A stretch of DNA of 64,000 nt from Escherichia coli (GCF_965641715.1 NZ_OZ282453.1), one strand, 5' to 3'. Counted from the stretch's first letter, positions 1-10,540 are shown. Notes: generated from the sequence alone by a model not told the origin. A program made the numbers and translations.

Positions 1-596
1 TAGGGGTAACCTGTAGGGATGTACCACCCACCTTAAAATAAAGGGGTAAAATCGCTTAGAATGCGTTACAGAGCGTCTGAGAAGCCATATTCACAGATTT
101 TACTAAAACCTCAGACTTCTAAGTGGTCTTTTTAACAGGAGGGTTCTTTCTCATGTATCACCCTCTCTTCCCGCCAAGTAAGCTACACAGACCTAGAGAA
201 TATGCCTTCACAGCATCTATATCAGGTCAGATTTAGAGGTCTTGATAGAATCTTCAAAGGTACTTGACAGATAACTATGAAGTTGTTAGGAAGGGGTGTT
301 TAACGGGGGAAGAGATACGATATAACCCGAAGGGGAGAGTATCATCTTAACAGTGATTGTAAGAGTAAAACTGAAAAGATACTTAACAGAACTACCAAGA
401 GGGAGCGATAAGACCAGAGGTAGTGACCTGTTAAACAGTTCGTTTCAAAGCTCTTAAGAGTCTGTTAAGTAAGGTCATGTGAACAATCATATCATTTTGT
501 CAATGCTTTTGTCTTTGACCTAAATCAATAAAATGTATCGTTTGATGTGCTTTTAAACAAAATAGTTAAAAATCTTTTTAGAGGGGCGCTTCGCTT

Positions 597-1265
597 GTGT
601 CACATCCAATAATCCATATCGGTCGTTATCATGGTGGTTCTGATGACTGGCGTACACCGTATCGTCTATTTCATAACCTGCATCGTGAGTATAGCTTCAG
701 TCTAGATGGCGCTGCAACTGAGCATGACGCATTGTTGCCACGGTTCACCGATGATATAAACCGTCAATCATGGGTTGGTGAACGGGTCTTCGTTAACCCG
801 CCGTTTAGCATGGCTGAACAGTTCCTCGCAAAAGCCCCTGAAGCTGATGTGTGTGTATGTCTGGTTCCGCACAGGTCAAAGACAACTTACTGGCTTCGGT
901 GTGTATATACAAACCCCTTCCTGCATGAGATTCGAACATTACACCGAGCGGTTAAATACCTTCCACCAGCAGGAAAGAGAGGTGTTGTAGCGCGTTCACC
1001 ATTTGCAAGCTGTGTTTTGATATACAGGAACACACCCCGTAAACCGAAGGTTGAAATTACCCAGACAATCTATTGTGGCGACACAATGCTTTTACTTGCC
1101 GTGGTTAATAGGGGTGGTTTACGTGGAAGACCTCATATACACGATGCACAGACGCTTGACAGGTTGATTAAAATGCATGACCAAGGGCAATCCGTCAAGA
1201 GTATCGCAGAATCGCTAAGAATGCCTCTAAGCACCACTTACAGGATTGTTCAAAGGTTGAGCTAA
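597..1265 (+). CDS. Phage Dam-family DNA N6-adenine methyltransferase with C-terminal HTH-like segment
   Basis: GTG start with GAGGGG RBS about 11 nt upstream; WRTP...GERVFVNPPFS motif typical of phage Dam-type MTases; C-terminal QSVKSIAESLRMPLSTTYRIVQRL resembles an HTH. Confidence 0.6.
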   Translation: MSHPIIHIGRYHGGSDDWRTPYRLFHNLHREYSFSLDGAATEHDALLPRFTDDINRQSWVGERVFVNPPFSMAEQFLAKAPEADVCVCLVPHRSKTTYWLRCVYTNPFLHEIRTLHRAVKYLPPAGKRGVVARSPFASCVLIYRNTPRKPKVEITQTIYCGDTMLLLAVVNRGGLRGRPHIHDAQTLDRLIKMHDQGQSVKSIAESLRMPLSTTYRIVQRLS

Positions 1266-1300
1266 AATTCTCATATAGAGCACTGATTATGAGAATGTTA

Positions 1301-1333
1301 AAGAGGCGATTTCCCCTTTCTGGGGTTATTCGC
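1301..1333 (+). repeat. About 30-nt element containing CCCCTTTCTGGGG hairpin followed by T-run (copy 1); possible MTase terminator
   Basis: aagaggcgatttcccctttctggggttattcgcttttt; a near copy occurs at 1521..1552. Confidence 0.4.
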
Positions 1334-1520
1334 TTTTTACTGGAAGGGTTATTTTACAGAGGTTTTTCAAACCCCCTCAATAATAAAAAACGAGCAACAA
1401 ACGAAGAGCGAGAAATAAAATATTGAGACTGGTGAACGGGGTCTGTAAAGATTGTTTAAGAAGTCGGTTTAGGGATTGGTAGATGATTCGGATGAAGCAT
1501 CCTCATAACAATACCAATTA

Positions 1521-1552
1521 GAAGGTGGCTCTCCCTTTCTGGGGATATCGCC
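1521..1552 (+). repeat. About 30-nt element containing CCCTTTCTGGGG hairpin (copy 2)
   Basis: gaaggtggctctccctttctggggatatcgcc, similar to 1301..1333. Confidence 0.4.
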
Positions 1553-1575
1553 TTGTATCTTAGTGAGTCCAGGAA

Positions 1576-7864: not shown

Positions 7865-8020
7865 TTTAACGGTGTTCTACGTGAATAAAGCAAAGTTAAT
7901 ACCCACACCAAAAATTATTTTTCACGTAGCTCACGCTTAACAGAGAAAATACATATATATCAAAGGCTTGGTTAAAAATGATTAAAATACACTAAGCCTT
8001 TGAAATCAAAGGAGAATTTA

Positions 8021-8794
8021 ATGATTTTTAGCAATCAAATCCGCTACAGTGGCAAAGATGGCATCTATTTCCACTTAAGAGATAATGTAGATGCCTTCTT
8101 AACCTTATCAGCAACTGAAAACATGGAATTTGACAGTCCTATGCAGGTGACTACACAGAACATGCAATCAGGGCAAACCGTCACAGATAATGTGCAAAGA
8201 GCACCCAGAACAATCACTATTAGTGGTGTCGTTGTAGTTGGCTATGAAGGAAGCTTATTATTAACTCGTCAGGGTCAATTAGTAGAAAACTTCATTGACA
8301 CTCTTGAAAGCTGGAGAGACCAGAAACAAATTATTTCAGTGATTTGTAAAGATGGTATCAAGATTGATGACTCAATTATTACCAACTTTAAAGCCTCTAA
8401 AGATGTTACTATCTCTAACGGTCTTCGTATCCAGCTAACTTTTCAGGAAATTAACTTCAAAGCCATTGTAGGGCAAACTGATGTTTCAGCAGCTACTGGC
8501 AAAACTGCTACCACTAATGATGGTGGTGCTACCAGTAAAAAGAATGCGGGTAACGTGACTACTGAACGCAATAACGCACCTATGTTGATGTGTCAGGAAC
8601 TGTATAGCTACTCAGCATCTGAGCTATCTGATGAAGCGCTAAGGGTCCGTAGCAATTGCTCTAAAAATGTCACGGTGAAAGATGGTGTAAGCACCTTCAC
8701 AGCCTCAGCTAATGAGCAGGCTTCAAAAGTGCTTAAGTCGGGTAATGCTTTACGGAAGTTTAGTGTGAATCCGAATAAGAAGGGCACTTATTGA
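8021..8794 (+). CDS. Hypothetical phage protein (257 aa), possibly tail-associated
   Basis: ATG at 8021 with AAGGAG RBS (the track ORF starts at an upstream TTG); follows the tape-measure-like gene. Confidence 0.5.
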
Positions 8795-8813
8795 TTGGTA
8801 ACAATACCAATTC

Positions 8814-10457
8814 CTAAGCGTCCACCTCTTCCATATCACCAGCAGGATAAATCCTTGTTACTGGTTCACCAAAAATAAGCATATCATCTAGTGACTGCAT
8901 CTCATCGGTTGCTTCTTCAAGCGTTAAGGTGTGGTCATCTTTACCATCAAGAGGGAAACCACGAATCATATTTCCATTGTGAAGATATATATCCACCAGC
9001 TTTTCATTACCAGAAACAACAATCTCTTTCACCAGACGCTTAATGATAATCTGGGCTTCAGTTCTCCCCTCTACAGACTCCATATCAAGACCGCTTAAAT
9101 CCAAGCTTGATACAGATTTTACCCTCGCCTTTTCTCGTGATAACTGAACTATCAGTTCATCTTTTTCTTCCTGCTTAACCCGTAGTGCTTCCTGAATCTG
9201 AGTGATGTTAGGAAGCTGTATCAGCGTCTCAGTAAGTTTTTCAAGTTCACTATCAACGGTGTTTAGTCTGCGTTGTAGCTCATCCAATTTAGCTGTGTCA
9301 GTAGCTTCATCGTGTAGCTGTGATAGTTTGCTGAACAGACGACTACAAAGCTGTGTATCAAGTAACTTTCTGGACACTGTACCGTAGCTACAACGGGACT
9401 CCTTATTACCATTGCAACGGTAAGTACCTTGATAAACGGGTTTACGTATCCCTGTAGGAGTCATTACAAGCCCACACTTACAACGGATAAGCCCCTTCAG
9501 TATGTTCACATATAGCCAGTGTTCACCGCTGGATGTTTTCCCCTTCCCTGTTTCCTCTAACAGTTGCTGTACAGCGTAAAACTTAGAGTCTGTGACAATC
9601 TGAGGATAGAACCCTTCAATTTCTTCACGTAACACTGTTTTACGGTCTTCTGTAGAAATCTTAGCGGGAAGGTAACCTAATACACTTCGTGAAGTCAGGA
9701 TGTGTTTAACGCTTAATGCTGACCAGTTGCCATCCGGTTTCTTAGTCTTGGATATTCTGACCTTACGCTGATTAATGGTCGGGTAACCTTGTTCGTTTAG
9801 CCATTTACAGATAGCAAACATCGACATACCAGAAAGACGCTTGTCATAGATGATATTCACCAGTGACGCTTTATCTTCATCAACGATGTAGTGTGAACCG
9901 TCTTCTGATAGCTCTAACCATCCGGGGGCTTGCTTACCCATAGGCTTCTTAAGTTCTCTTGCAAGCTGTGTTTTATGGTTCCAGACCTGAGCTATACGCT
10001 TTTGCTTAACAAGAGATTCCTGATGTGCTCTCTCAGCTATGATGATGTGCTTAATCAACTTCACAGGGTCTGTTAATGCTGATTTGTCGTAGAGTTCACC
10101 ATCTCCCAGAGTCAGTATAGAGACTCCTTTCCTCAGTATCTGCCTGACATCATCTATAGCTGTGTCGATATCAGCCCTACTGAAGCGGTCAAAGTTCTCT
10201 ACAACAATCAGGGAACCTTCTGGAATAGCCCCAGACATAACATTTTCAAACATACGTCTGAAGTCAGAACCTTGAGCCTTATGTTGCTGGTGAAAACCAG
10301 ATTTACCCTTATCAACGTATCTGTGAGCAGGAAGAAGGTAATAATCGTTTTTGTGCTTAGAGTAGAAAGCATCAATGAGGTTTGTTTGCCGTCTTAAGGA
10401 GTCTCCTGAGTCTTGCTCTTTAGTACTCCACCTGATGTATGTCACTAGCAGCTTCAT
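8814..10457 (-). CDS. Large serine recombinase (integrase), 547 aa
   Basis: N-terminal catalytic motif [12 protein letters not shown]...SLRRQ; C-terminal Cys-rich zinc-ribbon-like region and coiled coil; located at the element-host junction. Confidence 0.85.
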
Positions 10458-10499
10458 ATCTTCGGACTATGCTTATCTAAGTGGTTCATTGAACAGGAG

Positions 10500-10540
10500 A
10501 ACAATGATATGAGTGTTAAGGCAAGAATACTAGTGCTTTA
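10500..10540. other. Element-host junction (attR-like) inside the first codons of wrbA
   Basis: wrbA N-terminus reads [12 protein letters not shown] here versus MAKVLVLYY recalled for K-12; sequence matches host from about 10533 onward. Confidence 0.5.

Follow-up and report, generated by a model that had tools for sequence, protein, structure and literature searches.

A mosaic family of islands in Escherichia coli carries tail genes shared with virulent Felix O1-like phages: a candidate phage satellite at wrbA

The island beside wrbA

This work deals with an integrated element that lies against the wrbA gene in a 64,000-nucleotide stretch of Escherichia coli DNA (GCF_965641715.1, NZ_OZ282453.1), hereafter the window, from whose first letter all coordinates are counted. 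An earlier note had taken positions 1-10535 for a prophage-like element with a large serine recombinase at its right end. A composition scan gave 36-45% GC over positions 1-10500 and 50-53% from 10501 onward and, as the note had proposed, low-GC foreign DNA does abut wrbA, the element occupying positions 1-10532. Most of its genes have no function recognisable with PHROG or Pfam. The features found were the following, (+) and (-) giving the strand and L numbers designating relatives of the element:

1-596: right part of the non-coding left arm (~1.6 kb when whole), abundant in TTAACAG-type motifs (k-mer sharing)
597-1265 (+): Dam-type DNA N6-adenine methyltransferase with a C-terminal resolvase-type helix-turn-helix (PHROG 111, TIGR01712, PADLOC orphan methyltransferase)
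1266-2186: non-coding stretch holding tandem repeats
1468-1521: 54-nt phage-matching non-coding segment with an ATTGGTA...TACCAAT inverted repeat
1575-1751: two tandem ~94-bp repeats, 90% identical over the 83 nt aligned, kept in L010, L013, L017 and L025
1872-2096 (-): gene for a small membrane protein with one transmembrane pass; 58-74 aa, according to which start codon is used (annotated in relatives)
2187-2220 and 4175-4208: 34-nt box ATTA..AAATGTTAC.AA..TGTTAAAAAT, directly upstream of the -35 of both main promoters
2223-2251 (+): sigma-70-like promoter of the first operon, divergent from the promoter of the small membrane protein gene
2300-2857 (+): o185, first gene of the 2300-4121 operon (no detectable homology)
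2858-3351 (+): o92 and o71a, small conserved proteins
3348-3635 (+): HNH endonuclease of HNH_3 type, 95 aa (PHROG 99/959; Pfam HNH_3 on relatives)
3792-4121 (+): o109, conserved protein
4175-4505 (+): family-wide promoter (4212-4240; 11/12 match, extended -10) followed by a ~250-nt leader
4708-5418 (+): o236, the family marker protein (structure model)
5438-5653 (+): o71b, small conserved protein encoded directly ahead of the tape measure gene
5735-7864 (+): tape measure protein (TMP), 709 aa (PHROG 4036, TIGR02675)
8000-8794 (+): Dit-like tail hub/baseplate protein, 264 aa (PF21821, PHROG 3721)
8793-8812: 20-nt palindrome GATTGGTAACAATACCAATT, where the convergent Dit-like and recombinase genes meet
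8814-10457 (-): large serine recombinase, 547 aa (Pfam Resolvase, Recombinase and Zn_ribbon_recom)
10458-10539: attR, with the element-derived wrbA ribosome-binding site and first 8 codons, then the core at 10533-10539 (junction comparison)
10509-11114 (+): hybrid, intact wrbA, 201 aa (open reading frame map, K-12 comparison)
56-118, 3610-3672 and 3745-3765: three copies of the box CGTTACAGAGCG(T/A)(C/T)TGAG(A/G)AG

The start codon of wrbA is separated by 51 bp from that of the divergent recombinase, and the N-terminus of the hybrid WrbA differs from the K-12 start, MAKVLVLYY. The crossover was mapped from three junctions, namely the empty site of K-12, the attR of the window and the attL of strain 26561, and falls in a shared core, GTGCTTT, at wrbA codons 6-8. 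Because of this position, the start codon, the ribosome-binding site and the DNA upstream of wrbA derive from the element, and the comparison of attB, attR and attL thus bears out what had been proposed for the first codons and the promoter of the gene. The attR sequence was identical in three genomes and the 7-bp core was common to attB (K-12), attL (L001 and L003), attR (window) and attP (L017, L018 and L019); all four sites could be reconstructed, with this very short sequence as their shared core. The left end had been placed beyond the window, and rightly: relatives have ~976 bp more between attL/attP and window base 1, and that part of the left arm lies outside the window together with attL. 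In strain 26561 the entire insert between ymdF and wrbA is about 11 kb, and complete copies in relatives measured 11.0-11.5 kb (11,178 bp in the circular contig L017 and 11,477 bp as the repeat period of L025). Taken together, these comparisons indicate an integrative, excisable island of 11.2-11.5 kb, of which the window contains the right-hand 10.5 kb. No second copy was found elsewhere in the window, and the recombinase was beside wrbA in only 64 of the 5426 complete E. coli genomes, which rules out DNA present at the same place in most E. coli. On the chromosomal side, yccE (12923-14173, - strand) is strikingly AT-rich compared with its neighbours (30-37% GC); it is outside the element, since the native K-12 gene order yccE-agp-yccJ-wrbA is kept.

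The 547-aa protein is a large serine recombinase, as shown by its Pfam domains (Resolvase at residues 5-155, Recombinase at 194-302 and Zn_ribbon_recom at 319-368, with E = 8e-19 for PF07508 and E = 5e-4 for PF13408 in the C-terminal part) and by a catalytic-serine motif, YIRWSTKEQ (S11), in its translation. Its size and its arrangement with respect to wrbA were as first described, as was every other factual point of the earlier note, and the intact catalytic domain excludes a loss of the catalytic residues. The recombinase gene is convergent with the Dit-like gene. Many relatives, outside the lineage of the window, carry in the left arm a separate small serine resolvase/invertase of 182-189 aa (L003 5002-5550, L017 5981-6529 and L020 20274-20843), a candidate that may act in multimer resolution, inversion or directionality.

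Circular forms and a mosaic family

Excised copies were sought through their junctions. For the wrbA type, the attP predicted from the window attR plus the L001 attL was searched in metagenomes, and the predicted sequence, AATACTAGTGCTTTTACATAGC, was present in three contigs. One of them, L017, of 11,233 bp, overlaps itself over 55 bp at its ends, which makes it a closed circle of 11,178 bp. Another contig, L025 (ENA ERZ1744498 NODE_469, 23,009 bp), reads wrbA 5' fragment-attL-copy-attP-copy, with two 100% identical copies in a period of 11,477 bp, and is the closest relative of the window (93% identity). Its attP is flanked by two copies and, therefore, reads spanning attP existed in that sample; the contig represents either two copies integrated in tandem at wrbA or the assembler's passage between integrated and circular forms present together. 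A member of the type inserted in yecE gave a similar picture, since the 11,068-bp metagenome scaffold L013 is a circular permutation in which the right end is joined to the left end via the 7-bp core AAAATCA, as in the attP predicted from attL and attR of an integrated copy. These junctions indicate that circular or tandem forms of the island are real. Three small contigs bearing o236 (P0104, P0100 and P0107) proved to hold the island in its usual integrated state, and in IMG/VR the attP pattern had no match.

A megablast search with positions 1-10535 detected related DNA in 558 of the 5426 complete E. coli genomes, in no case more than ~93% identical overall, and the family extends to E. albertii and Salmonella. 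The same cargo was also found at four other sites, yciI/tonB, the inside of yecE, lafU/dinB and msyB-mdtG/lpxL, where the large serine recombinases are unrelated (29-35% identity). This cargo consists of the Dam methylase, a replication-module slot, the HNH nuclease, a coiled-coil protein, the TMP and the Dit-like hub protein, and a gene-by-gene identity table showed that alleles reassort freely between members. Thus, among the wrbA-type elements the TMPs were 42-93% and the o236 proteins 26-92% identical, despite recombinases that are 98-100% identical in all of them. The marker protein o236, with members from E. coli, E. albertii and Salmonella, formed 3125 clusters when grouped at 90% identity; at the 50% level it had only a handful of relatives, all in the same architecture. 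TMP, Dit-like protein and o236 make up an invariant core that was kept across at least five integrase types, even where the o236 proteins were 25-28% identical. Scanning the species-representative genomes of GTDB with a Dit-like alignment disclosed no relative. Insertion sequences (IS) are frequent in relatives: L003 (1094-4579) bears two, an IS1 upstream of attL and, within the left arm, an ISEc12, and further relatives carry IS3, IS21 or IS256 elements.

In some relatives the first gene of the operon encodes a lambda-O-like replication initiator, and for this reason we regard the slot occupied by o185 in the window as a replication module. The AlphaFold model of o185 (pLDDT 51) was too poor to use. 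The dN/dS values were 0.1-0.3 for TMP, Dit-like protein, o236 and o185 (0.21-0.28 for o185, 0.17-0.27 for TMP and 0.15-0.28 in every segment of TMP), from which it follows that these are working genes and not debris.

Sequences shared with Felix O1-like phages

When 50,697 phage records were searched, the island matched only Felixounavirus and its relatives. Window positions 8036-8554 showed 91-94% nucleotide identity to more than 200 Felixounavirus genomes, the BASEL phage JohannRWettstein being among these matches. The gene order, TMP and then Dit-like protein, is the same in the island and in the Felix O1-like phages (genes 118-119 in phage garuso), the differences being that the two genes overlap in Felixounavirus whereas a 135-bp regulatory spacer separates them in the island, and that the phage pair belongs to an 86-kb phage genome and the island pair to a chromosomal island. 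Residues ~13-190 of the Dit-like protein are ~97% identical to the phage protein and the C-terminal ~70 aa have diverged. In the TMP the resemblance is confined to the N-terminal ~45 aa and to a C-terminal LLSSSYPEEE, the body being ~30% identical and hypervariable in the family. All the TMPs of the family keep phage-like termini around bodies that fall into several deeply divergent classes, and with 688-728 aa they are 7-47 aa shorter than the 735-aa phage protein. Even for a divergent family member, the phage homologs of the Dit-like protein were found only in Ounavirinae. The Ounavirinae (Felix O1-like) phages are strictly virulent. By these alignments, TMP and Dit-like protein are chimeric with proteins of Felix O1-like (Ounavirinae) myoviruses, and the pair has been kept compatible with, and repeatedly exchanged with, these virulent phages.

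The likeness to these phages includes non-coding DNA. Felix O1-like genomes have a ~1.7-kb gene-free region dense in CTTAACAG/CTAACAAG repeats, inside which lies the direct terminal repeat (DTR) that is annotated in UAB_69; for UAB_Phi87, a DTR of 608 bp has been determined experimentally (PMC4837284). Positions 371-399 and 400-434 of the window and the palindrome at 8793-8812 match sequence inside the phage DTR, the palindrome being 100% identical to its site there, and ~300 bp beyond the DTR a non-coding stretch of the phages matches positions 1468-1521 at 94-100% identity. Compared with shuffled sequences, the non-coding arms of the island shared 9-11-mers with the phage DTR region at z = 5-23 (z = 5-6 for positions 1-596 and 10-13 for the full arm of L025), while coding and chromosomal controls gave z near 0. 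The motif TTAACAG is enriched 5-fold in the island and lies in intergenic positions, beside promoters and gene starts. The 34-nt box, which precedes the first-operon promoter and recurs at 4175-4208, resembles the TGTTAAG/TTAACAG repeats of the phage terminal repeat, and this hints at a shared DNA-binding factor.

The tail genes follow the family-wide promoter, which is preceded by a box conserved throughout the family, and its leader, which ends ~200 nt before o236 in a hairpin like that of an intrinsic terminator (4474-4496, GCCCTAA...TTAGGGC, then the T run TTTCTTT). Most relatives keep this hairpin, while in L001 and L010 it is deleted, and promoter and terminator together could constitute an antitermination checkpoint or produce a small RNA. 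The gene of o236 is at the position where phages encode their tape-measure chaperones, and the structure model of the protein, a long antiparallel coiled coil plus a small beta domain, is prefoldin- or Skp-like; o236 may be the island's own chaperone or scaffold. No similarity was detected between o236 or o71b and the two tape-measure chaperones of the phage, a tblastn search of o236 against the 50,697 phage records gave no match, and neither o236 nor o185 had a Pfam match. The protein is commonly annotated as 'transposase' in RefSeq (PGAP) and, as this name has no Pfam or PHROG support, it is probably a propagated mis-annotation.

As to the remaining features, the ~94-bp tandem repeats have short internal inverted repeats and an AT-rich core and adjoin the replication-module slot; they may represent a replication origin or iterons. 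The small membrane protein gene is divergent from the main operon, has its own strong promoter (2216-2187) and terminator (1857-1834), and is kept across the family. Its product had no PHROG match and no tblastn match in the phage records, and may act as a toxin, in exclusion or in modulating lysis. The methylases of relatives combine the Pfam domains Dam and HTH_7, and the HNH endonuclease exists as two alleles and is absent from some members. With PADLOC, the methylase matched only orphan methyltransferase models plus a marginal CARF model (E = 0.006) and the other nine proteins matched none. One copy of the CGTTACAGAGCG box is inverted within a 63-nt inverted repeat; the left arm has one of the three and the other two lie on either side of the HNH-o109 intergenic region, an arrangement that also occurs in L013. 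An Rfam scan of positions 1-11200 at E <= 0.1 gave no match.

Affinities and possible role of the island

The ORF map, PHROG, NCBIfam and Pfam revealed no capsid, portal, terminase, sheath, tube, lysis or repressor gene among the genes of the element. With an integrated form, an incomplete set of virion genes and the ability to excise and circularise that is deduced from attP and the 11,178-bp circle, the island agrees with the structural side of the general definition of a phage satellite; for induction, packaging and transfer by a helper, its links to Felix O1-like phages are indirect. The size and type of the element, which the earlier note had left open, can be stated as far as sequence allows: it is a small, excisable, satellite-like island of a large family. 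The same note had found no fit to lambda/933W, P2 or P4/PICI layouts, and none emerged here. Of the P4-like hallmarks, the tyrosine integrase, the alpha primase-helicase, sid/psu/delta and a helper-type cos were all missing by PHROG, NCBIfam and Pfam, and of those of PICI and cf-PICI, neither the tyrosine integrase, alpA and pri-rep nor terS or a capsid module was detected with PHROG and NCBIfam. The core gene set of the phage-inducible chromosomal island-like elements (PLE) of Vibrio cholerae had no similarity to the island proteins by PHROG, PADLOC and Pfam, the hosts here being Escherichia and Salmonella. The insertion sites (wrbA, tonB, yecE, dinB and lpxL, not fis) and the serine recombinases also set the family apart from PICMI.

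PLE are parasites of the virulent myovirus ICP1, measure ~18 kb, are limited to V. cholerae and are known for capsid remodelling and for nuclease and packaging interference. The island resembles them as a small element with a large serine recombinase, its own replication initiator and several integrase/site variants around one cargo and, presumably, in its dependence on components of a virulent myovirus. It differs in the helper (ICP1 for PLE, presumably a Felixounavirus here) and in its tape measure and hub genes, since PLE are not known for encoding these proteins. The PICMI, satellites of virulent vibriophages, are integrated beside fis, rely on a core of three proteins to excise and replicate, AlpA being the key regulator, and are packaged as concatemers (PMC10803314). 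Like the island, with its presumed helper, they are small satellites of a virulent phage and lack capsid-remodelling genes; the island, by contrast, integrates with serine recombinases, is twice as large and has TMP and Dit-like genes in every case, whereas PICMI have no virion genes. The cf-PICI and P4-like satellites share with the island both their hosts (E. coli and Salmonella) and the supply of some virion or morphogenesis proteins, and obtain the remaining ones from a helper. However, they contribute to the capsid side (capsid, portal and terminase small subunit, or Sid/Psu) and have temperate helpers, while the island encodes two tail-core proteins and no capsid-side gene, and points to a virulent helper. 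Functionally, the island is closest to PLE and PICMI, and no sequence relation to either was found. A tape measure plus a hub protein is the defining cargo of no known satellite family. Searches of the full-text literature open without subscription found the island described nowhere, so that a prior description elsewhere is possible. The family is widespread and apparently undescribed, and is best classed with the phage satellites or phage parasites.

We give a somewhat better than even chance to the hypothesis that the island is a satellite-type parasite or hijacker of Felix O1-like phages, or a saboteur of their tail assembly, whose dependence on the helper we infer. Its more specific form, in which the family is an undescribed kind of 'tail-supplying' satellite that would place its own TMP and hub protein in the helper tail and present terminal-repeat-like DNA for packaging, is plausible, although we would rate it a little below even. 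Under this hypothesis the island would be dormant until a Felix O1-like phage infects the cell, and infection would lead to its excision by the recombinase and a directionality factor. It would then replicate from its own initiator module (the lambda-O-like Rep in some relatives, the o185 slot in the window), with the 94-bp repeats as candidate origin, and the o236-o71b-TMP-Dit operon would be expressed, possibly by readthrough of the leader terminator. The island TMP and Dit-like protein could enter helper tail assembly via their phage-compatible ends, and the outcome would be chimeric tails serving transfer of the island in helper capsids, sabotaged helper tails, or both. Packaging might involve concatemers of about eight units recognised through the terminal-repeat-like motifs, the PICMI-style packaging of concatemers (PMC10803314) offering by analogy a model of how an 11-kb island could fill a ~87-kb head.

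Several observations weigh against this hypothesis. The size of the island, 11 kb, is far below the ~87-kb headful of the helper, and neither a protein that would redirect capsid size nor a terminase small subunit was found among its genes. The element contains no recognisable directionality factor, and o185 showed no detectable similarity to the lambda-O-like initiators of relatives. Neither a copy of the UAB_69 DTR nor the DTR boundaries were found in the element; the mimicry appears limited to short motifs, the 20-nt palindrome and the 54-nt segment, and the palindrome, present in many relatives, is absent from some. The attP junctions from metagenomes prove circular or tandem forms and not phage-dependent excision. 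IMG/VR contained six island loci, all of them from isolate genomes and not from viromes, and hence gives no sign of encapsidation. Finally, induction by, packaging by and interference with Felix O1-like phages are predictions made from sequence.

Some of these observations would suit a pure anti-phage defence island, in which TMP and Dit-like protein are decoys that enter baseplate-hub and tail-tube initiation and yield dead tails, and which would spread only occasionally, by excision plus an unrelated route, and not by phage-mediated transfer. Compatible ends on a divergent body are what a dominant-negative subunit is expected to look like, the extreme allelic diversity and mosaicism fit an arms race, the insertion sites are variable and hotspot-like, and the lack of packaging or capsid-remodelling genes and of the DTR boundaries would be natural in such a locus. 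However, a simple poison does not need the purifying selection that acts on the divergent TMP and Dit-like bodies (0.15-0.28 in the TMP segments), and a stationary locus does not need a replication module, a long arm resembling a phage terminus or active excision, circular copies having been seen at ~15x contig coverage. Since, moreover, PADLOC recognised no defence model except the orphan methylase, we regard a pure defence role as unlikely, albeit deserving serious attention.

The two other explanations deny the tail genes any current phage role or derive them from a lost phage. If the element were an integrative mobilisable element or a genomic islet with phage-like genes as passenger DNA, its small size, its serine recombinase, its circular forms and its majority of genes of no recognisable function would be accounted for. 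Passenger DNA is nevertheless difficult to reconcile with a TMP, Dit-like and o236 core that is invariant across at least five integrase types and under purifying selection, or with the repeated patches of 90% or more nucleotide identity to contemporary phages, which imply ongoing exchange and selection for compatibility; in addition, PHROG, Pfam and NCBIfam gave no hit to a relaxase or oriT-type gene. We therefore consider this explanation improbable. As for a decayed prophage, that is, a temperate phage reduced to its tail and integrase end, it would agree with the low GC and with tail genes beside an integrase at wrbA, a known prophage site, and the earlier note had indeed called the element prophage-like. 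This label does not hold, because the complete element is only 11.0-11.5 kb and TMP and Dit-like protein are its sole virion-type genes. Moreover, the same 11.2-11.5-kb architecture is repeated in dozens of genomes, occupies five sites and also exists as a circle, there is no pseudogenised capsid or terminase debris, and all the genes tested are under purifying selection. As the only phage relatives of the tail genes are strictly virulent, the island is not a prophage of the Ounavirinae lineage either, and a prophage remnant is, in our judgement, very improbable.

Felix O1-like phages, classic tools of Salmonella typing, are in wide use as components of cocktails for biocontrol and therapy. 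If the satellite hypothesis is true, the island would be an overlooked determinant of the efficacy and host range of these phages, present in ~10% of complete E. coli genomes and in Salmonella, and also a route of gene transfer. It would give virulent coliphages or Salmonella phages their first satellite system and bring a virulent helper into the best-studied bacterial hosts; no satellite before it would have contributed tail-core rather than capsid functions. Hijacking would reach a new target, the tape-measure/hub core, beyond the capsid and the packaging motor on which satellites are known to act. The analysis also corrects the recurrent RefSeq naming of o236, and the satellite hypothesis is directly testable with standard E. 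coli strains and phages.

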